From the IMG/VR virus record IMGVR_UViG_3300038525_000015, positions 16,980-80,979 of that record: a stretch of 64,000 nucleotides of DNA. One strand, written 5' to 3'. The notes under the pieces were generated by a model. It saw only the letters and a program-made list of their open reading frames with translations, ran no database searches and had not been told where the DNA came from. The position numbers and the translations under genes were made by a program. Each line of letters starts with the position of its first letter. The stretch's first letter is position 1. Below, piece by piece: positions 217 to 48,917 of this stretch. Source of the DNA: a virus. Taxonomy: Duplodnaviria > Caudoviricetes.

Positions 217-545
217 TACTCGGCGCCTTCCAGCAGTTGCTGCAGGGTTTCCAGGGTGGCGTCAGCCGGGACCTCGACGCCCTTCTCGGTCAGCTGAGCC
301 TTGAGGGCTTCGATCTGCTCGGCCTTTTCCAGCAGGGCCTGCAGCTCGGGCTTCTTCGCCTTGGGATCGAACTCGATGCCCTTGGCGGTCAACGCATTGC
401 GGATCTCGGCGATGCTCACCTTGCCGTCGCCGTTGGTGTCGGCAGCGTCGAGCCGCACATGCAGTTCGGGGTCGAAGTCCTCGGCGTTGATCAGAACAAA
501 GTCACCTTGGCCCTCGCCCCACGGCTTAACCTTGATGGTATTCAT
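216..545 (-). CDS. HeH/LEM-like head accessory protein with EF-hand-like loop
   Basis: 109 aa; two 'L..KG(I/V)E......K/L..L..LL' repeats; DTNGDGKVSIAE loop. Confidence 0.75.
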   Translation of the reverse strand: MNTIKVKPWGEGQGDFVLINAEDFDPELHVRLDAADTNGDGKVSIAEIRNALTAKGIEFDPKAKKPELQALLEKAEQIEALKAQLTEKGVEVPADATLETLQQLLEGAE

Positions 546-591
546 GGAATTCTCCGGGTGATGCCGGGGCCGAAGCCCCGGCGGTTGCGGG

Positions 592-1746: not shown

Positions 1747-1760
1747 GGATTTCTCCTGAA

Positions 1761-2513: not shown

Positions 2514-2583
2514 TGGTTGATCCCCTTGGGACGATGGCGGCCTGGCCGCGTTGGTTGGGCGCCGGCTTTACCGGAGCCAGAAA

Positions 2584-2612
2584 CGAAAAAGCCCCGGCAG
2601 GTGCCGAGGCTC
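2584..2612 (-). terminator. Intrinsic terminator-like hairpin
   Basis: GCCTCGGCACCTGCCGGGGC followed by TTTTTCGTTT on minus strand. Confidence 0.65.
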
Positions 2613-2664
2613 TTGTGGGGTTGCGCCACGTTTTGCGCTGATCGCGTTTCGTGGCGCGAAAATG

Positions 2665-2687
2665 AAAAACCCGGCACGGGGCCAGGT
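2665..2687 (-). terminator. Second terminator-like hairpin
   Basis: ACCTGGCCCCGTGCCGGGT followed by TTTTCATT on minus strand. Confidence 0.5.
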
Positions 2688-2708
2688 CTGGATGTCAGGC
2701 GTTAGGGG

Positions 2709-2840
2709 TCACTCTTCCTCGTCGAACAACGGGTCGACCTCGTCTTCCCCATCGTCGAGCCAGTCATCACCCTCAGGCAACGTGCCGTCATCCAGCAGGT
2801 GTTCGTGTTCGGGCTCGAAATCTTCGTCGCGCTCAGTCAT
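2709..2840 (-). CDS. 43-aa highly acidic peptide (not in ORF track)
   Basis: AAGGA RBS; MTERDEDFEPEHEHLLDDGTLPEGDDWLDDGEDEVDPLFDEEE; 22 of 43 residues D/E. Confidence 0.65.
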   Translation of the reverse strand: MTERDEDFEPEHEHLLDDGTLPEGDDWLDDGEDEVDPLFDEEE

Positions 2841-2901
2841 CGGCGTGTCCTTGGAGAGTCGTGAGCGCAAGGTTACCCGCGACCTGCGGATGCCGGCCAG
2901 C

Positions 2902-3156
2902 TCAGCACAGCACCACCCTCTCGCCCTTCATAAAGCACGACGCGCACAGGATCTGCTTCGTCCCACCGCTCGCCTTCCCGTTCTTGTAGAACATGCCGAT
3001 CTTGGTCTCGATGACCTCGCGCGAGCCGCACCGGTAGCACTGAATCATGTGCGCCGGCTTGGGCATCGCTCGGACGCGCTTGCGGGCCTGCTCCAGAGGG
3101 GTATCCGGGGCATGTGTTCCTTGGATGACGTGCAGCTGGGGTTTCTGGTCGCTCAT
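2902..3156 (-). CDS. Small zinc-ribbon protein, 84 aa
   Basis: ATGA overlap with MuF gene stop; CYRC...CASC. Confidence 0.75.
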   Translation of the reverse strand: MSDQKPQLHVIQGTHAPDTPLEQARKRVRAMPKPAHMIQCYRCGSREVIETKIGMFYKNGKASGGTKQILCASCFMKGERVVLC

Positions 3157-4277
3157 GCTGCCAGCATACCAGCTCTCTCGAAAGCGGCAGCGTCTCGCTC
3201 GCGGAGTTCGTCGAGCGTGAGATACCGGCCCTTGTCGTTGTAGAAGCGGTCGAGCTGCAAACCGCCCTCGCGGAACAGCTTGCCACGCTCCGGGCCGAGC
3301 ACCTGATCCTGACGCTTGGCGCTCTGCTTCTTCAGCCACTGCGCATAGGTCGTGTCGGCCGGCACTTGGCCGTCCATGCTCGCCCTGGTGCCGGGATCGA
3401 TCTCGTCAGGCGAAAGGCCCAACTCCTGCCAGGCCTTGATGACCGGCGTGCTGGTGGATCGGCATTGCCAGTGGATACGGCCAGGCCCGGCACCCCAGGG
3501 CACCTGGTGGCCGACCGGCCGGTGATCGCCGGCGGTGTACTTCAGGCCGTCACGCAGTCGGCACGGCTCGCTGGTCCTGGAATCGAGCGTGCTGTGCCAG
3601 ACCTCGCCGGCCATCAGATCCTCGTTGGCCAGGTAGAACGCATCCCGCGCAACGCCTGCCGTGTGGCTGATCGCCGTGCGCACCATCGCCTCAATTTCGA
3701 GCCTGCCGCGCTGCAGTTGACCATCGGCGAAGCTCTCAGCCCGAATGCCCATGACGCGGCGCACGATCTGGTCGGTGGTCATTCCCTCGACAACGCCCAT
3801 GCGGACAGCATCGCGGATGCGTGCGGCGCGCCCGGACTCCAGGTCTGACAGCCATTCCTTGAGCAGGCGCCCCTGGAATGGCCGGGACATTGCCGCCGCG
3901 CGGACCTGGCCGAGATTGGCGTTCGCCAGCGGCACAGCCACCAGCACAGGGCCGGGTAGCGTCGCCGTGAACAGCGCCTGCTGGTAGGCCAGCTCGTAGG
4001 CCGCCAACTCGCCCAGCGTCTCGGTGAACTGCTCGCCGATCTCGGCATAGATCGCCTTGTTCAGCTCGCGCACTGACTGCAGCACGGTGTTCATGTGCGT
4101 GACGGTGAAGCGATCAGTGCCCATGCGCTCGACAGCTTCGAAGAGCCGCTGCCGCAAGTCCGCATCGGCGCGGTTCAGCAGGGCGATGATCTTGCGGACC
4201 TCGCCATTGCTGTAATGCTGCAGGTCGATGGCGTGGGCGACAGCTGCGTCAGCCAGGCGCTCGTTTACGGTGGGCAT
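3153..4277 (-). CDS. Head morphogenesis protein (SPP1 gp7/MuF family)
   Basis: 374 aa; 'VRTAISH', 'WHSTLDSRTSEPCRLRDG', 'PGRIHWQCRS'. Confidence 0.92.
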   Translation of the reverse strand: MPTVNERLADAAVAHAIDLQHYSNGEVRKIIALLNRADADLRQRLFEAVERMGTDRFTVTHMNTVLQSVRELNKAIYAEIGEQFTETLGELAAYELAYQQALFTATLPGPVLVAVPLANANLGQVRAAAMSRPFQGRLLKEWLSDLESGRAARIRDAVRMGVVEGMTTDQIVRRVMGIRAESFADGQLQRGRLEIEAMVRTAISHTAGVARDAFYLANEDLMAGEVWHSTLDSRTSEPCRLRDGLKYTAGDHRPVGHQVPWGAGPGRIHWQCRSTSTPVIKAWQELGLSPDEIDPGTRASMDGQVPADTTYAQWLKKQSAKRQDQVLGPERGKLFREGGLQLDRFYNDKGRYLTLDELRERDAAAFERAGMLAA

Positions 4278-4279
4278 AA

Positions 4280-5056
4280 CTACTCCTGTGCGTAGACAGC
4301 TTCACCGCTCTTTATGCGGAGCACCACCCAGTGAACGCTCCTTCCCAGCGCGGCGGCCGCCTCGGTCTGGCTCGCGTAACGCTTACCATTGAAAATGACT
4401 GGCTTGACCAGCCCCGCCATTGTTCGCCTTTCGCGGCTTTCCTCAGTCCAGCCCTTGCCTTTCTTTGCTGCGGATATTCGCGCCTTCCGCTCATCAGACA
4501 TCGGGCCGTACTTCCGGCCGGTAAGCTTTGCTGATCGCTTCGCGATCGCCTCAGGCGTTAGCTTCCTTCCGGTATTGGCCGCAATAAGCCTAGCGATAAC
4601 TTCCGGCCCAACTGGGCGACCCTTTTTCGCCTCAGAGATTCGTCTGCGACTTTCCTCGGTGTGCCGAAATCCCTGCATCTGAGCGGAAATTTGCGCTCTT
4701 TGCTTGTCGCTCATCGGGGGGCGAACAGATCCCTTTGATGACCCGGCCATTGGCAGCATGTTATAACCGCGCATTCCGAATGCGCCGAGCGCATCAATAT
4801 GATGTTGCTCCCTCGCTATAAGAGCCGACTCATCAGATACGCGCTCAATCACAACAAACTCAAAGGCGTCAGCGCCGTTTTTTGACCATGCGCGCTGAAG
4901 CTTTATGCTGTGGTGCTTTCCACGCTCAAGCAGCCTCTTGTGCGCCATCAGGCGCCGTCTCATGTTGTCCGAGCTGCCAACGTACATCGACCCGCATTGT
5001 TTGCTCCGTATGGCGTAAATGCCAGCCTCAGATAGAATATTGCCAGCCATTACCAT
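4280..5056 (-). CDS. Free-standing GIY-YIG homing endonuclease with NUMOD3 repeats
   Basis: 'GIYAIRSKQCGSMYVGSS..RR..H', repeated 'H/LT.E....S..K.G' NUMOD3-like units; lower GC; AAGGAG RBS before ATG 5056. Confidence 0.9.
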   Translation of the reverse strand: MVMAGNILSEAGIYAIRSKQCGSMYVGSSDNMRRRLMAHKRLLERGKHHSIKLQRAWSKNGADAFEFVVIERVSDESALIAREQHHIDALGAFGMRGYNMLPMAGSSKGSVRPPMSDKQRAQISAQMQGFRHTEESRRRISEAKKGRPVGPEVIARLIAANTGRKLTPEAIAKRSAKLTGRKYGPMSDERKARISAAKKGKGWTEESRERRTMAGLVKPVIFNGKRYASQTEAAAALGRSVHWVVLRIKSGEAVYAQE

Positions 5057-5082
5057 GACTCCTTGCAGTCTGGTTGTGGTTA

Positions 5083-5130
5083 GGGTCTGCCGGCGCTGAT
5101 AACACCGGCAGACCCGAACATTATAGCGAG
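5083..5130 (-). promoter_or_regulatory. Putative HEG promoter (-10 TATAAT) followed by leader hairpin
   Basis: TATAAT at the portal stop; perfect 11-bp stem GGGTCTGCCGG/CCGGCAGACCC with loop TGTTATCAGCG; no good -35 seen. Confidence 0.5.
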
Positions 5131-6497
5131 CCAAGCTGCGGCCCTTGCCGCTCAATCTCTTCTGCTTCTTCGTCCCAGTTGAATTCGTCTGATACCACTC
5201 CGCGCCGCTGCATTTCGCTAAATAGCGTTCTCTTTGACAGGTATCCCGAATCACACATGCCCTTCAGAATTGGCAGTGATTGCTCGGGCATATAATCCAT
5301 ATCGAAGTTGCCGCGCACCTCAACCGATCCGCCATCTGCGATGCCTCGGTAATCGGCCATGAACTGCAGCAGTTGCGCCAGCGCATCGGCGAACTGACCA
5401 GCCATGCGAGCCAGCGGGGACAGCTCTTGTGCTGCCTCTTCCTCGGCCTGGGTCGCGGTCTTGGCCTGCTGCTTGTCCTTCTGGAGCAGCATCGCGCGGG
5501 CCATGCGCATCTCGGCGAGCAGGTCTTGCAGCGCCTGCCGGCCAGCCTCGACCGCCGCGCCGGTGTGCTCGACGAACTTCATGTCGCCGCCCTGGGGCAG
5601 GTCCGTCAGCGTTCCGGCGCCGACCTTGAACTCATTGGGCAGCGGCTGGCCATTCGGGTCATAGCGCTGCTCCATCCCGATGCGCACCAAGATCGGCACG
5701 CGGATGGTGTGCAGGATGTTGTCCTGGTCGCTCTGGCTCTGCCAGTGCTTGACGTTGAGGTGGGCCAGCTCGATCAGCGGAGGCCGGGCCGTCATGAAGC
5801 CAGTGCGACCGGTGTAGAACGTCACCAGAGGGATGCGGGACAGGCTGGTGGCGCCTTCCTCGTGCATGTGCCACTTGCCGTCCTGGTCCTGGCGGTAGAC
5901 CTTCCAGCTTCCCGGCTCCAGTACGCGGACCTGATCCACGGTCGCAACGCCGAACTCGCCATCGGCCTCCTCGACCGCTTCCAGATAGCGGAACTGCGTC
6001 AGCTGGCCGCCCTCGCTACGCCAGCCCAGCACCTGCTCGGGCTTGATCAGCACGGCATAAGGGCGCAGGCCAGCGGCAATCTCGTCGGCACGGGTGCGAA
6101 CGCCCTCGGCTCGCGGGTACTCGACCAGGGCGTGGCAGATGCCGTGCGAGAGCCCAGTCCTGAACCAGTCCACCGCCCAGGCGTTCAGGTCATTGCCGGC
6201 GCGGTCCACGTCGAGGCACCACTGCGCAATTTCTTCCGGTACATCGTCACCGATCTGCAGCGGCTCGGCGAACACGCGGTCGGCCATGTTGCTGACCGTC
6301 TCGCTGTAGGCCGGCAGCAGCGTGGACTGAGCCAGGCGCTGCTTGTAAACGTCGGCCTCTTCGCCCGGGTACTGCGGCAGCAGGGCCTTGCCAGCGGCGC
6401 GCATGGCCTTTGTGCCGCCCATCAGCGGCGCAACCACCGCCCAGTCGGCGCGCATTGCGTCCACGGCCGGGAGAGTGATGCTCGGGTTGTCGCTCAT
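5121..6497 (-). CDS. Portal protein (DUF4055-like)
   Basis: 458 aa between TerL and MuF; 'LMGGTKAMRAAG..LLPQYPGE...Y..RL', 'PPLIELAHLNVKHWQSQSD'. Confidence 0.9.
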   Translation of the reverse strand: MSDNPSITLPAVDAMRADWAVVAPLMGGTKAMRAAGKALLPQYPGEEADVYKQRLAQSTLLPAYSETVSNMADRVFAEPLQIGDDVPEEIAQWCLDVDRAGNDLNAWAVDWFRTGLSHGICHALVEYPRAEGVRTRADEIAAGLRPYAVLIKPEQVLGWRSEGGQLTQFRYLEAVEEADGEFGVATVDQVRVLEPGSWKVYRQDQDGKWHMHEEGATSLSRIPLVTFYTGRTGFMTARPPLIELAHLNVKHWQSQSDQDNILHTIRVPILVRIGMEQRYDPNGQPLPNEFKVGAGTLTDLPQGGDMKFVEHTGAAVEAGRQALQDLLAEMRMARAMLLQKDKQQAKTATQAEEEAAQELSPLARMAGQFADALAQLLQFMADYRGIADGGSVEVRGNFDMDYMPEQSLPILKGMCDSGYLSKRTLFSEMQRRGVVSDEFNWDEEAEEIERQGPQLGSL

Positions 6498-6501
6498 GGG
6501 G

Positions 6502-7776
6502 TTACATCCGTAGGGGTTGGGTCGTGGTGACGGGCCGGCTGATCGGATACAGGAACGCCAGTGGGTAGCCGGCCGCGTCGTTCAGGTGGTCGTGGCCACT
6601 TTTCTTGTCCGGCATTCCGTTCTTGTCGTATGCCTGCTGCTCGAGCCCGTCAGTGAGGTGCGGGCAGCGAAGGGTGTTCACCTTTAGGCGCCGTACCCCA
6701 TCCCCGTTCATGATCAGGGCATTGACCGCGTTGACCCGATCCGCAATGGCCGGGTTGGTGCTGTTCACGCGGATCGCGAAGCCGGCCTGCTTGAGAATGC
6801 TCAGGTCCGACTCGCTCGCGTTCTTGCTGCTGGAGTTCTGGCCGCTGGCGTCCGGGAAAATCTGGATCGGGTGACCCTTGCCGGCGTACCGCTCGCGGAT
6901 CAGCTTCGCCATGTAGGGCGTGTCGCGACCGTCGGTGATTTCGGCTACCGCCACAGGCCAGCCTTCACGCATCACGTACACCACCGCACTCATCTTGAGG
7001 CGGTTGAAGTCCATGCCAATCAGCAGTGGTTCGCGCTCGCGCTCAACCTCATCGCTATGGTTCAGCTTCCGGCAGAAGTCGGGGTAAACGCTGCCGCTGT
7101 TGAGGTTGGTGAAGCGGCCCTCGATGTAGGCGCTGATAAGCCCGGCCGGGTAGCTGTCCCGCAAGCTCTGGACATAGTCATCCGGCAGGAACGGGTTGGT
7201 GTACGTCGCCGCCTGAACCATCACATAGCCAGGCTTGGGGTTGCGGCCCCAGGTGTCGTAGACGAATCGATAGCCTTCCGGCGTGGTGTACGCGGACACC
7301 CGGTTGAACGGCTCAGCAACGCCGGCTGGCTTCTGCCGGTTACGGGCAATGATCTTTCGCCAGACTGCTGCGGCCTGGTCCTTCTTGAGCGTGTCGATCT
7401 CGTCGATGTGCGCCCGGTAGGACTCGTAACCGACGATGCGCTCGGGGTTCTCCAGGGTGCGCAGGATGAAGTCCCCGCACTGGCTGGAGCTGGTGTAGAT
7501 CGCCTTGTCCTGCTGGTGGAATTTGCAGCGGATGCCCAGATCGGTGAGCTTCTCCAGCATCCGCGGCACAAGGATCGTCTTGACCAGGTCGTAGGTCGGC
7601 TCGTAGAGCGCGATCAGCGCCGAGGACGACTCCAGGGCATCGCGGACCGCACAGTTGGCCAGCGTCTCGGTCTTGCCGGTGCCGAAGCCGCCCACAAACG
7701 CCGGGTATTTGTCGCGCAGCTGGAAGAACCTAGCCTGGGGCTCCGTCATTTGGAGCCGAAGCACTCGCCCTTCCAC
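6502..7776 (-). CDS. terL: Terminase large subunit
   Basis: Walker A GGFGTGKT, 'IDEID' Walker B, nuclease 'IGMDFN' and 'HDHLNDAAGY'. Confidence 0.95.
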   Translation of the reverse strand: MEGRVLRLQMTEPQARFFQLRDKYPAFVGGFGTGKTETLANCAVRDALESSSALIALYEPTYDLVKTILVPRMLEKLTDLGIRCKFHQQDKAIYTSSSQCGDFILRTLENPERIVGYESYRAHIDEIDTLKKDQAAAVWRKIIARNRQKPAGVAEPFNRVSAYTTPEGYRFVYDTWGRNPKPGYVMVQAATYTNPFLPDDYVQSLRDSYPAGLISAYIEGRFTNLNSGSVYPDFCRKLNHSDEVEREREPLLIGMDFNRLKMSAVVYVMREGWPVAVAEITDGRDTPYMAKLIRERYAGKGHPIQIFPDASGQNSSSKNASESDLSILKQAGFAIRVNSTNPAIADRVNAVNALIMNGDGVRRLKVNTLRCPHLTDGLEQQAYDKNGMPDKKSGHDHLNDAAGYPLAFLYPISRPVTTTQPLRM

Positions 7777-8269
7777 CTACCACCTCGATCTCGATCTTGG
7801 CCACAGGCTGTTCCTGTGGCGGATTGTTCTTCAGCAGCTCGGCGCGGGTGCGCTCCAGGCTTTCGATGCGCGCGGTCAGGCGGTCAATGACGCTGTTGTA
7901 GTCCCGGACCTTACTGTTGCGCGTGATCTTCTCGACGCCTTCGAGGGGCTTGCCTTCTACCTCAACTGGCTCGACCTTCTCGCTTTCCAGCTCCAGCGTG
8001 TTGCCGAACTCGTTTTCACGAGCCAGGGCACGCATCAGGCGGATGCGGGTCAGGCGCAGCTCCTCATCGACGGCGCCGAGCTCCAGCGTGTGCCAGATCT
8101 CGCGCTCTTCATCGGTGAGGTGGGCCGAGTAGATCCCGTGGGTTCGGGCGTTCTGGTTGCCCTGGTGCGTCTTGGTGGCGTTGCCGCCGTGCATGCGGCA
8201 GCGACCATTGGGCATTGCCTTCGCCTGGCAAGGATGGCCGCTGCGGGTTCTGGCTCCGCAGGTGGCCAT
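7730..8269 (-). CDS. terS: Terminase small subunit
   Basis: N-terminal 'CGARTRSG.PC...AMPNGRCRMHGG', 'GNQNARTHG'; upstream of TerL. Confidence 0.8.
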   Translation of the reverse strand: MATCGARTRSGHPCQAKAMPNGRCRMHGGNATKTHQGNQNARTHGIYSAHLTDEEREIWHTLELGAVDEELRLTRIRLMRALARENEFGNTLELESEKVEPVEVEGKPLEGVEKITRNSKVRDYNSVIDRLTARIESLERTRAELLKNNPPQEQPVAKIEIEVVGGRASASAPNDGAPG

Positions 8270-16874: not shown

Positions 16875-16980
16875 TCCGAACCCCTGGAAACCACTGGATA
16901 ACCGTCCACCCAACCCGGGCGACTACTCCTGCCCTCCCCATCCCCGCAGAATGCGAGGCATGGAAAAGGCAGCCCTAAAT

Positions 16981-34228: not shown

Positions 34229-37200
34229 TCACTCCCTCGCGCGAGCCTCCTCGATCCGCTTCCCTGCCCTCTCGGTCAGCCGGCTCTTGATGGCCTGCAA
34301 CCGATCCAGCTCCCGCCGCTTGCGCTCGCCGTCCCAGTCGCTGCGGCGCACCATATCCATGCGGGCATTGATGCCGCTGAGTTGCTTCTGCACCTCAGCC
34401 AGCGGTTTACGCATTGCCAGCACCTGCCGCTTCTCCTGAACCAACTCCCTCGCTTCATCCTTACGCCCCAGCTCCTGGAGACGCTTCGCGTCGGCATACA
34501 CCCGCCCGGATTCTTTCAGGCCTTCATAGAACAGCGTGCTGTAGCGGTCATACGGCGCCGGCGCGCCCAGGTCGCGGTAGAACCGCCGGATCGGCTGGTA
34601 CTCGTGCCAATGCTTCGCCGGCTCGCTCTCGCCGCCCGCTGCGCGCCAGACCGTATCAGTGATGCCGGCGCCCCAAGCGCCAACCTGACCGAGGTAGCCC
34701 CTGATCAGGTGATCGGCCTGCAGCGACGAGAGTGCGAATTCTTCGCCCAGCACTGCGGTGGCCGAGGAAATCGCTTTCGCCGGCGCAGTGCTGCTCGCTC
34801 GATCGCGCAGGGTTGGGCTCACTTTCTCCATCCCGGCGCTCTCGATAGGCCGGCCGGTGAAAGCATCCCTGTTCGAGTACACATCCAGCGCTGGCTGGAA
34901 CATCTGCGGCACCGGACTGAAGCTGAACGTTTGGGTGAGCATCGCCCACAGCCGCTCGCGAAACAGCTTGCCGCTGGCCTTGTCGTCGACTGCCTGTTCA
35001 GCCAGACGCTCCACCAGCGTGGAAATGGCACCCACCTCGAACGGCTTGGGCAGGAAGAAGGCGTTATCCCCGACGCGGAAGAACCAGAAGCTGTCCTTCT
35101 GCCAGTCCTCGAGCTTGCGGTACTCCTCGTCGTCATGGTTCGCCAGGAAAAGCGCCAAGCTGGCCAGCGCCAGCGCACCGGTCACCGCGGCGAACCGGGC
35201 GGCCGCCACCTTGTCGCTGTTGGTGCCCTTGCCGAAGGCAACCTTGACCGCCGGCTTGAAGCCCGAGCGATACAGTTTGTCGAGGCCCTGCAGGCGAGCA
35301 TTTAGAAATGGCACAACGCGAATCAGGAAGCGCACCGCCGGCCAGGCGCCTTCCTGGCTGAAGTCCATCAGATCGCGCGCCTCGTAGGCGGCGCGCAGCG
35401 CACCCTTGTCCTTGTTCTGCAGGAAAGCCGCCGCCCGATTGGCGTTTTCGGCGGTGTTAGCCGCCTCGTTGTAGGCGTCCCAGCCGGCCACCAGCAGCTT
35501 CGGCACCAGGGCGGGAGCGTCCAGCAGCTTCGCGCCGCGCAGGGAGCGCTTGAGCCCGGCCTTCACCTCCTCGGGATCCGCACCGTAGATATGCCCGAAG
35601 CTGAATGCACCACCACTGGCCAGCATCTGCGCCCTGGTCTTCTGATCGCGGAAGGACTTCAGGCCCTGAAACATGTTCGCTGGCACGTTCTTGCTCACCG
35701 GCGTGGTGGCGGCGGCCTGCATCGAGTCGCGCAGGAAGTTGGCGATGATGAACTGCGGCGTGATGGTGGTCATGTTGGTGAACACCCGCTTGAACTTGGC
35801 CATGGTGCGCACGGCGAAGTTGTTGAGCCCCGGGTCGGCCAGCGAGCTCAACGCCTCGAACACCAGGGCATCGTCCACCTCGTACCAGACCTTATCGCCC
35901 TTCTCCAGAACGAAGGTGCTGGTCTTGGGATCGCGTGCTGCCTCTGGGACCTTCCGCGCAATCTGCAGGCGCTCAGCGTTGGCGATGGTTTGCGCCGCGG
36001 CCTGGTTCTTCAGGCTGGCCGTCAGCAGGTGGTGGAAGTTCATCAGGGTGTTTTCCAGCAGGTCATTCAGATTCTGCTTCCCGCCCTTGAGCTTCTTGTA
36101 CGCCTCCTGCCGACTCAGCCCCTTGGACGAAACCGGGCCCTTCGCCTTGGCCTCTTCATCCATGACCCGATAGAACGGGACGTAGAACTCGTCCCGCCAC
36201 ATGGCACGGTTCTCGGAGCTGATAATGCCGGTCTGCTCAGCAATGGCCAGCACGTCGTCGCGGTACTGCTGGAACTCCTTGAAGACCTCATCGTAAAGCG
36301 ATGCACGGGTGCGGCCGTCTTCAGTGACACCCCTGTTGATCCCTTTCAGCGCCTCGATGTCCTGGGCGGTGAACAGGTTTTCCCTGCCCTCTGCCGCGAG
36401 CTTGGCCGCCCGATTGCCGGCCACCCAGCCGAAGAAGCGCTCGATTTCCTTCGCATCCCCAAGCCGGCCCAGCACTTCACCCAGACCCATACTGCCGTCT
36501 TCGCGCATGCCGATCACTTTCTGCTGCGGATCGAGGACGATGCGGCCGTTGTGCATCATGGCGTTGAGCGCACCGGCGGCCGCCGGCGCCATGCGGGCCA
36601 GTACCCAGGCGCTGCTGGTGATCGAAGTGTCGAGGAAGTCGAGGCCGTGAGCCTTCTCGTCGAGTTCCTTCAAGGCGGCGTAGCGATCGACCAGGCCCTG
36701 GCGGATCTTGGTCATAGCGCGGTCGGCGCGCTCGCGGAACCAGAGCGTTGCGCGCTGGCGAGCAGTCGGGGGAGCGATCTTGCCCAGCGCATCGCGCTCG
36801 GCCTGGCTGAGATCGGCGAAAGCTTCGGAAACGTGGGGGCGCGTCGACCGCAGCGAGTAGCGGGTGTCTTCGGAGGGGTCTACAGGTGCTTCAGTTCCGG
36901 ATCGATCGCCAGTTGCTGCTTGGCCCACTCGGAAGAGGCCTTCATCTCGCGCCGCAGAGATTCGATCTCGGATTTCGTCAGGCGATAGTTGCCCTTTGTC
37001 GAACGTGAGGAGGGTTCGAGCTTCGGACTGGGTGAGCCCTTCGAAGCCATAACCGAAGGTTTCACGCCACCAGGGTTCGATATCGCTGTACTTGCCACGG
37101 ACTTGCGCCAAGGTGTCGGGATCAATCGCAAGTTTCCGTGAGTAGTTCTTGCCGGTCAAGGCAAGCGCTGCCAGCACCTGGCCGCCGTTGTCCTCGATGT

Positions 37201-40200
37201 GCGTCTTCAACTGCGCCAGAGTTCCACCCTGGGTCAGGGTGTCGTCGAGGAGCAGGTACTCAGCGGCGACCACGCCACCATCGAAGGTCGGCTGATTGGC
37301 AATGCGCTCCAGAGCATTTGACTGGGTCCGACCAACCTTCTGCGCCTGCATCACATTGGTGTCGGTCTCCAAGCCCAGGCGCTGCGCCAGCACCTCGGCA
37401 GCCATCAGCGGAATCCGATTGTCCCCCGCACCCTCGCGCGCCAGCACCGGCACGATGCGCGGCAAGCTGCCCTCCGGAATCAGCGCTCGCACCCGCTCGA
37501 TGAACTCCGGCGTTACAGCATCGCGGGCGACGCGCAGCGCGGCCGCGTCGTCGCCGGCCTTGGCTGCGGCGTAGTCGGGGTGGTTGTTCAGGAAGCTCAG
37601 GGGGTGCGCCAGCACCGTATCGGGGAAATCCGCCGCCCAGCCTCGACGGGAGTAGAGCTGGTCGGAACCAGACAGGTTCGCGCGCTGCGCACGCAGCCAG
37701 TCCCGCGACTGCTCGATCAGGGCCAGCACGTCGGTGTAGGTCCAGTTCACCTGGGGGAACAGCTTGCGCAGCAACTCGCGGATCTTCGACGCCACACGCT
37801 GAAGCACGGTCGGTCGGTCGCCCGACTCGGCCAAGTGGGCAATGATCTCCTCGGCAATCAGCAGGCGCTGCTCCGCTGCGCTCTTGCCTTGGAGCACGGC
37901 GGCGTAGTGCTCGCGGATCTGCGCCACCCGCTGCCGGCCGGTGGTGCGGGCCATCTCGCTGGAATAGATGCGTTCCAGCGTGCCGTCGAGCTGATCACCC
38001 AGCAGGCCGCGAATGCCCTGGTGGCCAACCATCTCGTGCACCGCGGTGCGGATGGCTTCTTCCAGATCCTGCTGGTTGTCGGCGACCAGGTACTGCGCAT
38101 CCGGCCGAAACACACCGCGGACATCATGGGACCGCACACCATCACGCTCAGCGCGGATTCGCACCGACAGAGGCAAGTCGCCAAAGGCCTGCACCACTTG
38201 GATGCTTGCTAGCTCAGGATGCTTATCGATCTCCGTTTGGATTTCCACCGCCGACACCTGGCCACGGCCGTCTAGGCGGTACATTTGGACGCCACTATCC
38301 GTCTCGCGCGTTTCGATGATGCCGAAGAGCTCATCAAACGCAGCACGCACTGAAGGGAGCTCTGCAGCTGTTAGGTAGGGGTAACGATCCGGGTCGCTGT
38401 ATGCCGTCTCCGATACGATATTCGCCAGGTAATCGCTGCTAATACCAGCGTCCTGCAGCTTGGCTATGACATGGCTTTCGAAGGCGCGAGCCGACATTTC
38501 CAGCGCCGTTGACCAGTAATCCTTGCTGCGTGTTGCGTCTAATTGCTCGGAACGCTTCTGCAAGTCTGTCGCCCTGAGCGCACTCATCAGACGACTGAAG
38601 GCTTCGATGAGCTCGGGGCGTACACCCTCACCGCGCTTGTAAGGCCGCTCAGTGAGATAAGCATCCGGCTGACTTCTGGCCCGACTGAGGTAGTTGTCGA
38701 AGGCATGCCACCACTCATGCGCCAGCGAGCCAGCACCGTTCCCCTTGGTCAGGTTAATGACAGTCTCGCCCGACTCGTAATGCGCTTTTGCCGGGTCAGG
38801 CCCACCTCTACCACGCGCACCGAACGCTAAAGCGAGCTCTCCATTGAGCGACAGAGCCTTGGCCGGGATGTTCAAGATGCCGGCCAAATCACTCAGCGCG
38901 TCGAATGCTTCGTTGAGCTCTTGCTGCCGACGGTTGTTTTCAACGTAGTTGCCAAACTGCACACCACGAAAACCGAAGGTCTCGCTGAACAGCTCGGGGG
39001 TAACATCCTGGCCATTCCGGTAGTCGACCCCAACCCGAGGCGCGTTGCCTTCACCTCGGTGCGCGGGCACCTCTTTTAGCGCGTCGTACTGCCTTTCTAG
39101 CGAACTCTGATTTTCGCCCAGATACTTGCGTGCCTCTGCCAAGCTGTCGAACGATCGAAGCCGCGCAACGCGCTTGCCATTTTTTTTCCCAATGAAATAG
39201 CCGCGCTCGCCACGCTGAGAGAACACATCGAAGCGGATGGCGTTGTCGGCTTTTTTCTTCACAGACTCGAGCTTGGCATGTACCTCCGCAAAGGCGTCCA
39301 AGGCTTCCTGCTTGGTGTTACCGGAGGCCAATTCTTGCGGCCAATTACTCAGCGCCGTAGCTTTTGCATCCTTGCTGGCAATCCATTTATTGACGTTTTT
39401 CTCGCCTCGATACATCGAGAAATAGCGCTCGGCGAACGTAATGCCCTTGAGCGAATGCGCATGTCCAAAGCGCTGATACAACTCCACCCGGCCAGCCAGA
39501 CCGCGCAACGCGGGGTGGTCGTCGTAGAGGCTTGAGCGAACCTCTTCGGTGAGTTCGCCGTGATCCAAAATCCGGCGCGTCGCATTGCGCAAAAGATCAA
39601 CCTGGTCAGCCCACCGACTCAGCTTGTATGGATTGCTGGGTTTGGTGGGCACCTCATCTCGGGCAGCATGTGCAAAAGCAACCGCCCAACGGTCACCACC
39701 CTGATCCAGAAGTGCCTGATAGTCCGGTTCAGGCCAAGACTTAGACAGCGGTACCGCTTTCACGTCCGCTTGCATCGCCACGTCGAGCTGCTGCGTATAG
39801 GACGAAAACTTGCGCGCGCCCTCGATTCGCTCTCCGAAGTCGTCGATCTTCTTTGTTGGCTTGGGTGTAGCGGCTGGTTTTTCGGCGACTACCTGCTTGG
39901 CCGGCAGAGTGTGTTCCACTTGGTCGCGCTTGGCGGGAGCGTTGCGCTCCGCGCCCGATGCCAGTTTTTGCTCAGCTGAAGAGCCGGAGGAGGTGTCGCT
40001 TACGCGGTCGGTTGCTGCAGGGCCTGCTTCGCTTGCCGACGAGCCAGGCGCTCCTGCGTCGCTTGCTCGATGCGCGCCTGCAGCTCGTTCTGGCGCCTTT
40101 CCAGCTCCACTGGATCGCTGGTCCCGAAGTGCTCGATCGCTCGTTGGAGCCTGGCTTCCGCTGACATGCTGGGTACCTTTTTTGCTCTGATCCATCGCCC

Positions 40201-43200
40201 TATCGGCGGCGTTCATGACATCCGCAGAAGTGAGGCCTGCTTCGATCGGGGAAACCCCCAGATGCAGCCCCACGCCACGTTTGGACTCGTCGTCAGGATG
40301 CTTCGGGTGGACGATCTTGTCCAGCCCTTCCCGGCGCGTGTAGGCCTTGGCGGCCGCCTGGCCACGCTCCAGGGCCGCCTCGACTGCCGCTCGCTCGCCG
40401 CCAATCACCAGCACGCCGAACTCGTCGCCGCCGGTGCGGAAGCCTTCGACATGGCCGACCGCGCCCAGCTCCTTGCGCACGATGTCCGCCAGCGCCCGGT
40501 AGTGCTTGTTGGCGTCCCGAGCCACGTTGTTGAAATGCGCGTTCAGTCCACCCAGGTTAGCGATGTCGGCGCTCACCCAGTACGCCTCGCCGTCGGTGGC
40601 GGCCACGTACTCGATGGCTCGGCCAATGGCGCGCTCAGTGTCAGTGCTGCCGTCTTCCGCTTCGCGCCGGCCCTCGAACAGTCCGGTGGTGGCATCGATG
40701 GGTGCGGAGAAGCGCGACTTGCTGGCCAGGCGCTCGGCCACGTCCGGGGCCACGCCGTCGGCGATGTACTCGTCGATAACGGCCTGGCGGTAGGAGTCCG
40801 CATAGGGCGTATAGCCAGCAGCCGGCCCCTGCTCGGCGCGCCCTGCCTGGGCGAGATCCTGGGCCGGCTTGGTCAGGTCTCCCTTGAGCCAGCGCTTGAA
40901 CTGCTCGACCGGCATGGCCGTGACCTCGCCCACCTTCCAGTCCGGATCGAAGTTGGAACGGTAGGCCTCCACCGCCGCGGCCTGGTCGGGATAGCCCAGC
41001 ATCACCTTGTGCTCATCGAAGCTGCCATCCTGCTGGTGGAGCTGGTCAACGATGAACACCTGGTCGCTGTCTTCCTGCGGCCCTAGGTACACGTCGACCT
41101 GCTCTTGGTCGGCGCCAACGGTGCGCTTGATGTAGCCGTAGTGATCGCTCATGGTGTGACGCCACTCGGTACCATCCGGGCGCTTGCCGCTGCGCTCGGA
41201 GCCGCGCGGATTCTCAACAGCGATATCCAGGCCGGCGACGCGCACATGCCCCTTGCGGTAGTTGCCGGTCTCAATCTGCGCCGGCGTGGGCGCCGGCAGG
41301 TCGTTGTTCGGGGAGGTGGCCGCCTGATCTGCCTGTTGGTCGATCGGACGTGCCGGACGCAACGGCTGCGGTTCCTGCTGCTTGGGCACTGCAACGGCCC
41401 AGCCATCACCGTGGCGCACGATCTGCGGCTGCTCGCCAGCCTTCGCCGCCTCGCGATACAGGAGGCTCGCGCGCGCATCGCCGCGCCCCTGGAACGGCTT
41501 GCCGTTCTTGCGCAGCCGAATTTCCAGATCCGGCGCGCCGCTGGCGTCAGCAGTTGGAGCGTGCTGGTCCATCCCGCGCCCGCCCGGCAGCGGCCGTTCG
41601 GGATTCGGAGCCACGAACGGCCCGGTCGGCCCCCGCTGAGCATTGCCCTGGCTATCCACCACGATGCTATCCGGGGCGGGCAGTGCCTGGCGCTCCGGTG
41701 CGGCGTCGACCGTGGCAGGCTCCGCGGCTGCGCGCCCAGGTGCCGCCGGCCGACTGCCATACTGGAACTCGCCAGCCAACGGCGCCGGTTCGCCTCGCGG
41801 GGTCGGCTGATCCATACCCGGCCCACCGGGCATGCGCTCCGGATCGTTCTGCGGATTGACCCACTGGCGTGCCTGCAGATCCGGCCGCTGCTCGCCGTCC
41901 ACGTTGCGCACCGGCCCGGTGTCTTGCACGTTGCCTTGGCTGTCGGCATAGAAGACCTTCTCGGGCGCCGGCAGTGCCTGGTGCTCAGGTGCCGGCAAAG
42001 CGCCGGGCTCGGGGGTGTTCTCGAAGGTGGCTTCGGGGGTCGCGAGATCCTGGGCTGCAGCGCTAGCAGGCCTGACGCGCGGCGTGGCCACCGCACCCAG
42101 CCCCCCACCCATAACAGCGCCAGTGGCGAGGCCGCCAAGCCCTGCGTTCAGCACGCCAGCGCCAAGCTTTCGATTCGGGTCGGCGTCCTGCATGGCGTAG
42201 TTCTCTGCCACCTGCTGCCCAATCGACTGCGGCAGCTCTTCCAGCAGGCCTTCGCCAACCGCGCCCTTGGCGATACGCCCGCCGATACCCGCTGTCACCC
42301 TGCCAGTCAGCAGGTTGGCCAGCGCACGGTCGCCCATGCCGCCGAAAACACCCGTGGCCGCGCCAGCTATGAGCAGGCCTTGGGTGGCAGAGTCCTCAGC
42401 CAGTTGCGCCCGCGCTTCCTCCGGCTTAAGCCCCTCTTCCAGCAGCGTCTGAAACGCCTCGGACTGCTGCAGTTGCTCCAGCGGCATGGCGGCGATCTGG
42501 TCGCGCACCTGGCGCGCCGTGTCCGCTCCGCCCAGCAAGCCCTCGGAAACGCCGCCGGCCACGGTCGCCATGCGTGCGGCGGCCTTCGCCGCCACTGCTT
42601 TATCCCCCGTCTTGGCCAGCGCGCGAGCATAGGCGCCCTTGGCCAGCCGGCCCGCCGCGCCCATGGTGATGGCCATCTCCGGCAGCGACTGGATGATGCC
42701 GCTGGCGTAGGCGCGCGGATCAGTCCAGGCCGAGCCGAGCGAACCGGTTTCCTCATCCCACCACAACTTCTGCTGCGCGCCACGCATCTCGGGGGTCAGG
42801 TTCTGCTGGTACTTCTGCTCGTTTTCCCGCAGCAGCGTTTCGGAGTCCTTGCCCGACAGGAAGCGGTCGGCGGCATCACCCGCCGCCAGCAACCCTTCGC
42901 CCACCACCGGGATGCGCCCCACCAGCTCGCGCACGTTCTGCGCCGCGCGGTTGACGCCTGCTGCCAGGAGGTTGCCTGTGTCGGTGAGCAGATTGCCGCT
43001 TTCCGGGGATTCCGCATCAGCCCCAAGGGTCGACCGACCAAGCGTGCTCTGCGTGTCCTGGTCGAACAGCTCGCGGGCACGCGGCTCCATGCCTGCTGGA
43101 ACCCGAGGCATAACCACTTCTTGGAAGTAGAGTTCGCGAGCACGCTCTTGGCGTTCGGGCGCCAGCGCGCGGAATTGCTCGCTGGCAGCCACCTCCGCCC

Positions 43201-43231
43201 AGCGGCGGGGTTGGCGGGTTTCGTTCTGCAT
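34229..43231 (-). CDS. Giant polyvalent virion/ejection protein (3000 aa): InPase-like, GGDEF, LPD5/LPD1-like, zincin metallopeptidase, PRTase-like, LPD38-like domains
   Basis: 'GNYRKGH..YGYI..T.GAD..VDVY..FDEHKVMLG' (~40880-41290); GGDEF at 40418-40432; 'KKIDDFGERIEGARK'; 'GSLAHEWWHAFD'; 'AVHEMVGH'; 'LLLDDTLTQGGTL'; C-terminal 'FFLPKPFEVG'. Confidence 0.92.
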   Translation of the reverse strand: MQNETRQPRRWAEVAASEQFRALAPERQERARELYFQEVVMPRVPAGMEPRARELFDQDTQSTLGRSTLGADAESPESGNLLTDTGNLLAAGVNRAAQNVRELVGRIPVVGEGLLAAGDAADRFLSGKDSETLLRENEQKYQQNLTPEMRGAQQKLWWDEETGSLGSAWTDPRAYASGIIQSLPEMAITMGAAGRLAKGAYARALAKTGDKAVAAKAAARMATVAGGVSEGLLGGADTARQVRDQIAAMPLEQLQQSEAFQTLLEEGLKPEEARAQLAEDSATQGLLIAGAATGVFGGMGDRALANLLTGRVTAGIGGRIAKGAVGEGLLEELPQSIGQQVAENYAMQDADPNRKLGAGVLNAGLGGLATGAVMGGGLGAVATPRVRPASAAAQDLATPEATFENTPEPGALPAPEHQALPAPEKVFYADSQGNVQDTGPVRNVDGEQRPDLQARQWVNPQNDPERMPGGPGMDQPTPRGEPAPLAGEFQYGSRPAAPGRAAAEPATVDAAPERQALPAPDSIVVDSQGNAQRGPTGPFVAPNPERPLPGGRGMDQHAPTADASGAPDLEIRLRKNGKPFQGRGDARASLLYREAAKAGEQPQIVRHGDGWAVAVPKQQEPQPLRPARPIDQQADQAATSPNNDLPAPTPAQIETGNYRKGHVRVAGLDIAVENPRGSERSGKRPDGTEWRHTMSDHYGYIKRTVGADQEQVDVYLGPQEDSDQVFIVDQLHQQDGSFDEHKVMLGYPDQAAAVEAYRSNFDPDWKVGEVTAMPVEQFKRWLKGDLTKPAQDLAQAGRAEQGPAAGYTPYADSYRQAVIDEYIADGVAPDVAERLASKSRFSAPIDATTGLFEGRREAEDGSTDTERAIGRAIEYVAATDGEAYWVSADIANLGGLNAHFNNVARDANKHYRALADIVRKELGAVGHVEGFRTGGDEFGVLVIGGERAAVEAALERGQAAAKAYTRREGLDKIVHPKHPDDESKRGVGLHLGVSPIEAGLTSADVMNAADRAMDQSKKGTQHVSGSQAPTSDRALRDQRSSGAGKAPERAAGAHRASDAGAPGSSASEAGPAATDRVSDTSSGSSAEQKLASGAERNAPAKRDQVEHTLPAKQVVAEKPAATPKPTKKIDDFGERIEGARKFSSYTQQLDVAMQADVKAVPLSKSWPEPDYQALLDQGGDRWAVAFAHAARDEVPTKPSNPYKLSRWADQVDLLRNATRRILDHGELTEEVRSSLYDDHPALRGLAGRVELYQRFGHAHSLKGITFAERYFSMYRGEKNVNKWIASKDAKATALSNWPQELASGNTKQEALDAFAEVHAKLESVKKKADNAIRFDVFSQRGERGYFIGKKNGKRVARLRSFDSLAEARKYLGENQSSLERQYDALKEVPAHRGEGNAPRVGVDYRNGQDVTPELFSETFGFRGVQFGNYVENNRRQQELNEAFDALSDLAGILNIPAKALSLNGELALAFGARGRGGPDPAKAHYESGETVINLTKGNGAGSLAHEWWHAFDNYLSRARSQPDAYLTERPYKRGEGVRPELIEAFSRLMSALRATDLQKRSEQLDATRSKDYWSTALEMSARAFESHVIAKLQDAGISSDYLANIVSETAYSDPDRYPYLTAAELPSVRAAFDELFGIIETRETDSGVQMYRLDGRGQVSAVEIQTEIDKHPELASIQVVQAFGDLPLSVRIRAERDGVRSHDVRGVFRPDAQYLVADNQQDLEEAIRTAVHEMVGHQGIRGLLGDQLDGTLERIYSSEMARTTGRQRVAQIREHYAAVLQGKSAAEQRLLIAEEIIAHLAESGDRPTVLQRVASKIRELLRKLFPQVNWTYTDVLALIEQSRDWLRAQRANLSGSDQLYSRRGWAADFPDTVLAHPLSFLNNHPDYAAAKAGDDAAALRVARDAVTPEFIERVRALIPEGSLPRIVPVLAREGAGDNRIPLMAAEVLAQRLGLETDTNVMQAQKVGRTQSNALERIANQPTFDGGVVAAEYLLLDDTLTQGGTLAQLKTHIEDNGGQVLAALALTGKNYSRKLAIDPDTLAQVRGKYSDIEPWWRETFGYGFEGLTQSEARTLLTFDKGQLSPDEIRDRISAARDEGLFRVGQAATGDRSGTEAPVDPSEDTRYSLRSTRPHVSEAFADLSQAERDALGKIAPPTARQRATLWFRERADRAMTKIRQGLVDRYAALKELDEKAHGLDFLDTSITSSAWVLARMAPAAAGALNAMMHNGRIVLDPQQKVIGMREDGSMGLGEVLGRLGDAKEIERFFGWVAGNRAAKLAAEGRENLFTAQDIEALKGINRGVTEDGRTRASLYDEVFKEFQQYRDDVLAIAEQTGIISSENRAMWRDEFYVPFYRVMDEEAKAKGPVSSKGLSRQEAYKKLKGGKQNLNDLLENTLMNFHHLLTASLKNQAAAQTIANAERLQIARKVPEAARDPKTSTFVLEKGDKVWYEVDDALVFEALSSLADPGLNNFAVRTMAKFKRVFTNMTTITPQFIIANFLRDSMQAAATTPVSKNVPANMFQGLKSFRDQKTRAQMLASGGAFSFGHIYGADPEEVKAGLKRSLRGAKLLDAPALVPKLLVAGWDAYNEAANTAENANRAAAFLQNKDKGALRAAYEARDLMDFSQEGAWPAVRFLIRVVPFLNARLQGLDKLYRSGFKPAVKVAFGKGTNSDKVAAARFAAVTGALALASLALFLANHDDEEYRKLEDWQKDSFWFFRVGDNAFFLPKPFEVGAISTLVERLAEQAVDDKASGKLFRERLWAMLTQTFSFSPVPQMFQPALDVYSNRDAFTGRPIESAGMEKVSPTLRDRASSTAPAKAISSATAVLGEEFALSSLQADHLIRGYLGQVGAWGAGITDTVWRAAGGESEPAKHWHEYQPIRRFYRDLGAPAPYDRYSTLFYEGLKESGRVYADAKRLQELGRKDEARELVQEKRQVLAMRKPLAEVQKQLSGINARMDMVRRSDWDGERKRRELDRLQAIKSRLTERAGKRIEEARARE
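36880..37050 (-). CDS. Putative nested small gene (+1 frame) after PRTase-like domain, 56 aa
   Basis: MASKGSP...YRLTKSEIESLRREMKASSEWAKQQLAIDPELKHL; GC3 bias shifts into this frame. Confidence 0.55.
   Translation of the reverse strand: MASKGSPSPKLEPSSRSTKGNYRLTKSEIESLRREMKASSEWAKQQLAIDPELKHL
40000..40167 (-). CDS. Putative nested small gene (+1 frame) after GGDEF domain, 55 aa (not in ORF track)
   Basis: AAGGT RBS; MSAEARLQRAIEHFGTSDPVELERRQNELQARIEQATQERLARRQAKQALQQPTA; GC3 bias shifts into this frame. Confidence 0.6.
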   Translation of the reverse strand: MSAEARLQRAIEHFGTSDPVELERRQNELQARIEQATQERLARRQAKQALQQPTA

Positions 43232-47684: not shown

Positions 47685-48886
47685 TCACCAGCTCCCCATG
47701 CGGATCATGAGTTGACCATTGGGATACCACATGCGAACGCCGGTATCGCCAATCTCCAGGCGCCCATTGTCGCCTGATCCATTGATGGCTAGCCCACCGC
47801 TCTTATCGAGCGCCCAGCGCGGTCGACCTTGCTTGTCCACCGCAGTCGACTTGATCACTCCGCTGATATTGCCATCCCCAACCCGCAGCTCATCCACATC
47901 AAGCATGTCCGCACGCAGCTTCCCAGCCAGGGTGGTAACCGGCTTGCCGGCGGCATCGAGGATCTTGCCGAAGGTGATCGGACCGAGGTGGCCTTCCTGA
48001 ATCGAGGCTTCCCGAATGAAGGCGCTGTCGATGTAGACCTTGCCGTCCAGCACCATGAACGGTTTGACCGCCGAGCTGGCGGCGCCAGGCCGAGCAATCC
48101 AGAAGCGGTCAGCCAGCACGGCGAAATCAGCCACCTTGCCGTCGTTGTGGGTGCCAAACCCGGACACGTAGCCGTTCACATCGGTGGTCAGCGTGAAGGA
48201 CGCCGATAGACCCTGTACCACCTCGGACTGTTGACTGATGCTCGTGCCGAAGCCGTTCAGGCGCTGGCGTAGCTTCTCTTCCAGAACGGACTCGCCGAGC
48301 TGGCCAGAGAGCTGACCCAGCAGATACGCAGCATCCGGCAGCGGCCGGGCAAAGGCGCCCGCCGCCGAGTTCGGCGGGCCTTCCATGCCGGCGGCCGAGC
48401 TGAAGGTGATCCAGTAGTAGAAGCCCGGCAGGTTCAGCGGATCCTCGGCCACCGTGGCGTCATCGCGCACCAGGTCGCTGTAAAACGCCCCTGCCTCGCG
48501 GCCAACCATCACCGCTGTGGCGAAGTTGTCCTCTTCCGAGCGGTAGATGTTGGTGAAGGCGTGGTTGTTGTAGAGGGTTTGCGGGCGCTCCCAGCTCAGA
48601 TGGACCATGCCGAAAAAGCTGCCGACTGCGGAAAAGCCCACCGGACGCGGAGGGACGGTCATGTCCTGCTGCTGGCTGGGCGACACCACGCCGGCATCCG
48701 GGTTGCCGGGTACGCGCAGCCTGGCCACACCGCCATCCAGCAGGTCGCGCAAGGTGAGCTTGCGGTCGAGCTTATCGCCGCGCAGGCCTTCACCGGTTTC
48801 GATGATCTCGGCAATGGCCGCCATCAGTGGGCGCAGCTCTGCCGGCACCTTCGCCGACAGAGGCGGCAAGGATTTGCGTTTCGACA
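47685..48886 (-). CDS. Tail tip/fibre protein with DUF1983-like domain
   Basis: FN3-like segment; 'TTDVNGYVSGFG', 'DFAVLADRFWI', 'KPFMVLDGKVYID.AFI'. Confidence 0.8.
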
Positions 48887-48917
48887 TTCTGGTGCCTCCC
48901 GGCATGCAGTCGAAGGT

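Follow-up and report, generated by a model that had tools for sequence, protein, structure and literature searches.

Two small genes apparently nested in the +1 frame of a giant polyvalent-protein gene of a tailed phage

Can the linkers of a giant phage gene hold further genes, read in another frame? The question is raised by a stretch of 64,000 nucleotides from a virus of the Caudoviricetes (positions 16,980 to 80,979 of IMG/VR record IMGVR_UViG_3300038525_000015), which is called the window here. It is part of an 81-kilobase virus record from a terrestrial metagenome. On its minus strand lies a giant gene, P0001, that encodes a large polyvalent protein. Within that gene, two short open reading frames (ORFs) run on the same strand in the +1 frame. 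A first inspection of the letters alone, the original prediction, described them as hidden genes at 40167-40000 and 37050-36880, each placed directly behind an enzyme domain. Both ORFs are present as described, and both lie exactly at domain ends. The first, called n1, follows a GGDEF-like domain, and the second, n2, follows a domain resembling phosphoribosyltransferases (PRTase-like).

The best explanation for the observations as a whole is that n1 and n2 are two real small protein-coding genes nested in the giant gene and partners of the adjacent enzyme domain, and this explanation is probable. Its parts differ in strength. Judged from sequence comparison, n1 and n2 are very probably real, expressed genes. 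On the same grounds, the case that they are functional partners of the adjacent domain is slightly the better one. That they are specifically inhibitors is a tentative reading by analogy, and doubtful as it stands.

Nested genes and chance reading frames

The giant gene lies in DNA with 64% guanine plus cytosine (GC) and contains 15 ORFs of 45 or more amino acids in the +1 frame of its own strand. Because so many ORFs of this length occur in the gene, the length of n1 and n2 alone is no proof that they are genes.

Base composition provides further evidence. The original prediction had counted by hand the GC content at third codon positions (GC3), and the counts were reproduced: 0.78 in the nested frame against 0.45 in the giant frame for n1, and 0.79 against 0.36 for the last 38 codons of n2. 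By codon position, n1 has GC contents of 0.76/0.45/0.78 in the nested frame and 0.79/0.75/0.45 in the giant frame. The last 38 codons of n2 have 0.58/0.37/0.79 and 0.77/0.56/0.36, respectively, and the whole giant gene has 0.69/0.47/0.77. Among the 15 +1 ORFs, n1 alone has a coding-type GC pattern; n2, taken at full length, falls in between. A sliding scan of the whole 9-kb gene shows that GC3 of the giant frame drops below 0.5 only in the n1 and n2 stretches.

Conservation of n1

The start of n1 is conserved with its position. In all ten giant genes that were read, an ORF of 47-59 codons follows the GGDEF-like domain and opens with the same ATG. Close homologues (P0002-P0004 and the short P0019 contig) keep the ATG, which is formed within CAT or AAT GTC of the giant frame, together with the 55 codons and the TAA stop. 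They carry many base changes, and these alter about half as many amino acids in the nested frame as in the giant frame (7 versus 16, 16 versus 27, and 12 versus 19 differences). In every sequence read, NAT and not NAC precedes the n1 ATG; the background frequency of NAT is 0.35.

The ribosome-binding site claimed for n1, AAGGT, is indeed found 7 nucleotides before the ATG, within the last codons of the GGDEF-like domain. A purine-rich element of this kind (AAGG, GAGG or GGGAG) lies 6-12 nucleotides before the ATG in 12 of 12 members of the n1 family, free-standing ones included.

The association of n1 with its domain extends to distant relatives. Two unlike polyvalent proteins of 4573 and 4676 amino acids (ART/helicase/Eco57I type) contain a GGDEF-like domain that is about 50% identical. 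Their genes have, at the same spot as n1, an ORF of 48-50 codons beginning MSQE[AS]RLKRAQKL.GTTD. At 33-44% GGDEF identity n1 is present as well. Its hosts there are an N4-type vRNAP giant protein, a prophage protein of Sinorhizobium fredii, a giant protein with a weak HopBF1 kinase match, and a protein that combines GGDEF with LPD38. The Sinorhizobium fredii gene (L025, CP003563, giant gene 501-8189) encodes two near-identical tandem GGDEF-like domains, the first of which is followed by an intact n1 of 56 codons.

Homologues of n1 also exist as ordinary genes. A profile search of 1.8 billion representatives found small proteins that had been called as genes, including P0021 and P0022. These two are free-standing n1 homologues, with stops in all frames upstream, and they start at the same methionine. 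P0022 belongs to a P4-type integrative element that was seen on nine contigs.

The free-standing n1 homologue at L017:6001-6219 lies in an island with a P4-type integrase (Arm-DNA-bind_3/Phage_int_M), AlpA, DUF3631 and candidate cargo genes. P0021 shows a weak match to VapB_antitoxin, with an expectation value (E) of 0.074, which is a lead only and was not used as evidence. P0020, a repetitive match of 556 amino acids to the n1 profile, is seemingly a spurious repeat protein and was ignored. Nothing else in about 190 fetched loci matched the profile. There were no matches when n1 was compared by tblastn with phage records and P0021 with plasmid records, and nothing was confirmed when viral and metagenome contigs were scanned with n1 patterns.

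The structure predicted for n1 by AlphaFold2 consists of a helix (residues 3-14), a turn, and a second helix (residues 19-51), with a predicted local distance difference test score (pLDDT) of 89.8.

Conservation of n2

As first drawn, n2 begins at an ATG 20 codons before its conserved part. These 20 codons, which run from position 37050 to the core, show neither selection nor conservation in the nested frame. Both features are limited to the last 36 or so codons (36990-36883), called the n2 core here.

The core is tied to the PRTase-like domain. A total of 105 viral relatives of the PRTase-like domain were found. In a profile scan of viral contigs, an n2-like ORF was present exactly in the +1 frame at 80 of 80 PRTase loci of 46-84% identity, with 54 distinct cores. 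The original prediction had proposed asking whether each nested ORF co-occurs with its domain; it does so for n1 and n2 alike, across deep divergence. The signature of n2 is (R/M)LTPSEIESL, followed by an amphipathic helix of 20-30 residues and a stop. Its predicted structure is a single long helix (pLDDT 92.7).

In some relatives, n2 is not nested at all. The loci L153, L155 and L158 contain a gene of 556 amino acids for a MuF domain and a PRTase, which stops inside n2. There n2 starts at an ATG (MLTPSEI...) behind a Shine-Dalgarno (SD) element and extends about 40 nucleotides beyond the enzyme stop. This is an ordinary overlap of two genes. A free-standing n2 homologue (L071:8569-8913, minus strand) lies beside a P4-type integrase (Arm-DNA-bind_3/Phage_int_M). 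This copy and the n1 homologue of L017 may be orphans. Three more n2 homologues have been called as separate proteins on short contigs. In-frame fusions of n2 were not found in a search for longer proteins, which is weak evidence. A scan of metagenome contigs with 20-mers of the n2 C-terminus gave 54 loci, of which only L071, L087 and L100 are real; the other 51 are chance DPELKHL matches in unrelated genes.

Three further observations concern n2. Six of 30 n2 sequences weakly match NCBIfam NF010250 (PRK13696, "hypothetical protein"; best E 0.0016), a lead that was not used as evidence. The locus L132 has, at about 2000-2400, a +1 ORF of at least about 100 codons with three tandem n2-like units (PTLSELKSLQ/LTPAEIEDLRR/LTPSEIESLQQ), and the giant frame is of low complexity there. 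Finally, variant contigs from two runs carry a 1-nucleotide insertion and a 1-nucleotide deletion in the n2 core, 7 nucleotides apart, at window positions 36941 and 36948. These contigs have 24 other differences, and both frames are restored after two codons.

Selection in two frames

If a nested ORF is translated, purifying selection should be visible in its frame. A comparison of dN/dS (the ratio of nonsynonymous to synonymous substitution rates) in both frames had been proposed together with the two ORFs, and the nested frame is favoured for n1 as well as n2.

For n1, the ratio of nonsynonymous to synonymous changes (pN/pS) was followed along the gene in a sliding window within the close group. 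From the ATG to the stop, it is 0.4-0.5 in the nested frame and 1.0-1.6 in the giant frame. In the GGDEF-like domain upstream, the giant frame has a pN/pS of 0-0.5 and changes are concentrated at its third codon positions. Beyond the n1 stop, the values of the two frames converge again.

For the n2 core, pN/pS is 0.03-0.75 in the nested frame and at least 1.8 in the giant frame across most of the core. One comparison combines a nested value of 0.03 with zero changes that are synonymous in the giant frame. Selection switches frame at the first codon of the core and back after the stop, and it does so independently in two clades. The first dozen codons of the core overlap the last conserved helix of the PRTase-like domain (..[LV]RDRI.A.. 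in the giant frame), and in this part both frames are constrained.

The overlap leaves a trace in codon usage. Over the nested residues S-E-I-E, the first arginine of the giant frame is encoded by CGA in 68 of 69 distinct sequences (background 0.10), the aspartate by GAT in 57 of 59 (background 0.34), and the second arginine by CGA in 51 of 68. Codon choice in the giant frame over the n2 core is dictated by the nested S-E-I-E. The nested protein sequences diverge conservatively as the DNA changes.

Conservation, co-occurrence with a domain and frame-specific selection together support the view, already held in the original prediction, that these are hidden same-strand genes and not chance ORFs.

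Mosaic breakpoints

The giant genes of related phages are mosaics, and some of their junctions fall within the nested genes. Two other metagenome runs have contigs that part from the window exactly at 40032, within the 3' part of n1. At about this position, homologues exchange the downstream module (L012 and L013 compared with the window and L011), and the GGDEF domain keeps the 5' half of n1 with it. L012 becomes homologous to the window exactly at the n2 core. Such junctions fit the view that the small genes are the older layer. The start of each nested gene at a domain end suggests that an enzyme and its small partner gene move between phages as one unit.

The adjacent enzyme domains

The GGDEF-like domain of the window matches PF00990 with E 3.9e-4 and 20.7 bits, which is below the cut-off of 23.8 bits. 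Ten of ten aligned relatives also match this family, with E values up to 0.1 and a best value of 2.4e-10. A profile of the domain weakly matches solved diguanylate cyclases (3ign, E 0.0016). The domain belongs to a divergent GGDEF-like clade, in which NLGGLN replaces the usual motif after the first metal-binding aspartate.

Besides phage virion proteins, members of this clade include proteins resembling secreted toxins or effectors. P0013 is a WXG100-like protein of 4422 amino acids from Streptomyces. P0008 (locus L026) has a weak Pfam match to HopBF1 kinase, and its gene adjoins a type III export gene, Bac_export_2. A scan of genome contigs with the GGDEF segment gave remote Firmicute matches only, which were left unused.

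The PRTase-like domain has a loop for phosphoribosyl pyrophosphate (PRPP) that aligns to the adenine PRTases 6fsp and 5zgo (E 2e-4). The MuF-PRTase relative of L155 matches PF00156 with E 0.004 and 16.9 bits, below the cut-off of 26.3 bits.

The coordinates of all features are collected in Table 1.

Table 1. Features of the giant gene in the window (positions of the window; all on the minus strand)
Feature	Position	Strand	Basis or remark
Giant gene P0001, large polyvalent protein	34229..43231	-	single ORF, 3000 codons, about 9 kb
GGDEF-like nucleotidyl-cyclase domain, RTGGDEF motif, ending ...ADRAMDQSKKGTQHV	40163..40753	-	PF00990 match
A6 run, proposed slippery site	40178..40183	-	present, not conserved in homologues
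SD-like AAGGT, 7 nucleotides before the n1 ATG, within the last GGDEF-like codons	40175..40179	-	sequence
n1, predicted gene of 55 codons, +1 frame (MSAEARLQRAIEHFGTSDP...)	40000..40167	-	ATG, SD, conservation, selection
PRTase-like domain, PRPP loop LLLDDTLTQGGT	37052..37594	-	adenine PRTase match
n2 as first drawn, 56 codons from the ATG at 37050	36880..37050	-	ORF; that ATG is not conserved in relatives
SD-like AAAGGG just upstream of the n2 core	36992..36997	-	same element precedes the core-start ATG in other lineages
n2 conserved core (NYRLTKSEIESLRREMKASSEWAKQQLAIDPELKHL + TAG)	36880..36990	-	conservation, selection, codon choice
Last PRTase-like helix (...LSPDEIRDRISAAR)	to ~36950	-	overlaps the n2 core start

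Setting of the giant gene

The giant gene stands at the end of a tail and structural module, with a tail-fibre gene upstream on the same strand (47685-48905). Its product of 3000 amino acids has Pfam matches to InPase (residues 651-783), LPD5 (1282-1418), LPD1 (1564-1641) and LPD38 (2701-2879). These four matches place it among the large polyvalent proteins as PMC5512222 defines them. The GGDEF-like domain sits between InPase and LPD5, and the PRTase-like domain further along the protein.

BLAST searches of phage and plasmid records gave no DNA match for this region of the window. In the loci L012 and L013, a gene for an Imm_superinfect protein (PF14373) of 113 amino acids is found directly before the giant gene, on the opposite strand (L012:2459-2800 and L013:2458-2799).

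Points against partner genes

Several observations weigh against reading n1 and n2 as expressed partners of the adjacent domains. The free-standing homologues of n1 and n2 have no GGDEF or PRTase gene nearby; therefore, the small proteins can work without the domain, or work against an incoming one. In L012, n2 stands behind a MuF_C domain and not behind a PRTase. The second GGDEF copy of L025 keeps the ATG and is followed by a degenerate ORF of 37 codons, with no intact n1, and of the two GGDEF copies in L026 the first has an n1 behind it and the second lacks an intact one.

The products themselves are only 30-55 amino acids long, which is small for immunity proteins. No credible family or fold was found for n1 in the ESM Atlas, by Foldseek on the model, or in Pfam, PHROGs and NCBIfam, and no credible family for n2 in Pfam, PHROGs and NCBIfam.

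Nor does every module have a nested gene. The original prediction spoke of each enzyme module, and this holds for the GGDEF-like and PRTase-like domains; composition and ORF scans of the giant gene found no nested coding signal for the InPase and LPD5/LPD1 modules.

Two more points concern expression of n2. In the window, the core starts with CGC where other lineages have ATG, and L106-L108 and L130 have no in-frame ATG for n2, so that there is no conserved n2 start overall. A contig from an RNA library, of an L012-like variant, spans 36765-36988; transcription start, strand and translation are not readable from it.

Alternative explanations

The strongest alternative accepts that the nested genes are expressed and holds that their products are independent of the adjacent domain. 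They might be regulators, anti-defence factors or packaging chaperones, and the linkage would be historical, frozen by fusion. The free-standing copies in integrase-bearing islands fit this explanation, as do the n2 behind MuF_C, the second GGDEF copies without n1, and the lack of any family or fold match that suggests an inhibitor. However, the linkage has been kept over deep divergence and in many architectures, behind a GGDEF copy in every giant gene read and at every PRTase locus scanned. The breakpoints lie inside or after the nested gene, so that its 5' half moves with the enzyme. Linkage as tight as this in mosaic phage genes would usually be functional. Independence of the products is unlikely, though it deserves to be taken seriously.

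Another explanation is programmed +1 frameshifting. Ribosomes changing frame would produce truncated isoforms of the giant protein, ending after the GGDEF-like or the PRTase-like domain with a helical tail. The original prediction had named this alternative and pointed to an A6 run, which lies 11 nucleotides before the n1 ATG in the window. Over both stretches, the giant frame is rich in rare codons such as CGA and CTA, which also counts in favour of frameshifting. However, the A-run is not conserved in homologues (CAAAAAAG / CAAGAAAG / CAAACGAG), and L015 has a stop in the nested frame 7 codons before the n1 ATG. Because this stop lies upstream, because the ATG and the SD element of n1 are invariant, and because homologues start at the same methionine, internal initiation is the favoured route for n1.

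For n2, the comparison is less simple. The start of n2 in the window is unsettled on the available sequences: it lacks a convincing start at the conserved core, and nearly all loci have about 55 open codons in the +1 frame ahead of the core, both of which would suit a frameshift. In the window and several relatives, the n2 ATG lies 21 codons upstream of the core (37050 in the window, without an SD element), and in a large n2 clade the nearest ATG is 30 codons upstream. On the other hand, the core itself starts with ATG in nine distinct variants, and others have an ATG 1-2 codons upstream. In several lineages an SD element accompanies the ATG at either of these places. In L153, L155 and L158 n2 is a separate gene, and there is no conserved slippery motif before the core. 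Frameshifting is improbable as an explanation for the two ORFs.

The last explanation, that neither ORF is translated today and that both are chance ORFs of a GC-rich gene, relics of separate genes, or DNA or RNA signals at module junctions, can draw on the 15 comparable +1 ORFs in the same gene and on the coincidence of both sites with mosaic junctions, but it is very improbable, since frame-specific purifying selection persists among present-day fused genes, the giant frame has its synonymous sites fixed to suit the nested frame, the stop codons and the n1 start have been kept, relatives of both ORFs occur as ordinary genes, and the nested proteins diverge conservatively while the DNA changes.

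A model for origin and function

How could a gene come to lie inside another? In the model proposed for n1 and n2 as partner genes, each nested gene would be an old partner gene of its enzyme domain. The ancestral layout may have been the one that MuF-PRTase genes still show, in which the enzyme gene ends at a stop codon and a small gene behind it overlaps this 3' end. Later fusion of the enzyme to further modules would have let the giant frame continue through the small gene, in a different frame. In the giant protein, the poorly adapted "linker" of low complexity would then be the younger frame, and the small gene would have kept its own constraint.

Four observations point to the small genes as the older layer: MuF-PRTase and n2 occur as two genes, both nested genes have free-standing relatives, codons are better adapted in the nested frames, and the giant frame is unconstrained.

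The small proteins would be made by internal initiation on the giant mRNA and, in the producing cell, would target the enzyme domain next to them. As a best guess, they would hold the domain inactive, in the manner of immunity proteins or antitoxins, until the giant protein is delivered without them. Among possible roles, a neutralising one is tentatively favoured because n2 takes the position of a MuF immunity gene and because the GGDEF-like clade is found in proteins resembling secreted toxins.

A broader proposal can be built on this guess, and it is speculative and rather unlikely. Injected multi-effector proteins of phages would carry antidotes that are overprinted by the linker behind each dangerous domain. 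Effector and antidote would recombine as one cassette, the effector alone would be delivered, and the free-standing copies in resident integrative elements would serve as orphan immunity against the effectors of incoming phages.

Comparison with known systems

A known example of a nested phage gene is found in the spanin genes Rz and Rz1 of phage lambda. Rz1 lies wholly within the +1 frame of Rz, and the two products bind each other. The present genes are similar in that a short same-strand +1 gene, at least for n1 with its own start, is wholly inside a longer phage gene, and in that the embedded product would cooperate with that of the gene around it. They differ in their host, here a multi-domain gene of 9 kb that contains two unlike embedded genes, each bound to a single internal domain. 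In addition, the embedded frames seem to predate the linker that overlies them, and lipoprotein or membrane signals are absent.

Another known nested gene is comS, inside srfA of Bacillus subtilis. As in that case, the flexible-linker region of a giant multi-domain gene harbours a complete small gene in another frame, which relatives have kept. Unlike comS, n1 and n2 are each coupled to a specific enzyme domain.

The MuF polymorphic toxins of temperate phages resemble the proposed ancestral layout. Their immunity genes are reported to lie directly downstream of the C-terminal toxin domain (Jamet et al. 2017, PMC5576092; PMC12226406). By these accounts, the arrangement of L155, in which n2 follows MuF and PRTase at once, puts n2 in the position of an immunity gene. 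Enzyme and small gene also appear to shuffle as a cassette, as in the MuF toxins. In contrast to these toxins, the enzyme of the window is internal, the "immunity" position is inside the same ORF in another frame, and the products have 30-55 amino acids. PMC5576092 mentions neither PRTase nor GGDEF domains.

Polyvalent proteins of phages and conjugative elements were described by Iyer, Burroughs, Anand, de Souza and Aravind in 2017 (PMC5512222), including LPD1/5/38, InPase, GGDEF and PRTase domains. The giant protein of the window is a typical member of this group. What sets it apart from the anatomy given there is the presence of nested genes at domain borders; that paper mentions no frameshift or overlapping genes. 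A full-text literature search found no description of such embedded genes, and the two nested families and their domain-specific coupling appear to be undescribed.

Significance

Polyvalent proteins are major and little-tested "first-strike" weapons of phages and plasmids, and annotation treats each of them as one ORF. The window and its relatives point to two unannotated families of small proteins in about 100 phage contigs and a rhizobial prophage. Both are hidden in linkers, and each is locked to one nucleotide-handling enzyme.

The nested genes provide an experimental handle on the GGDEF-like and PRTase-like domains, by raising the questions of whether each domain is toxic and whether its peptide turns it off. 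Should the peptides prove to be antidotes, embedded immunity genes could be sought in other multi-domain toxins by similar reasoning.

The case also illustrates how a fusion of genes can cover an older gene with a newer linker frame. It carries a warning for annotation, as "low-complexity linkers" between the domains of giant mobile-element genes may be by-products of another gene.

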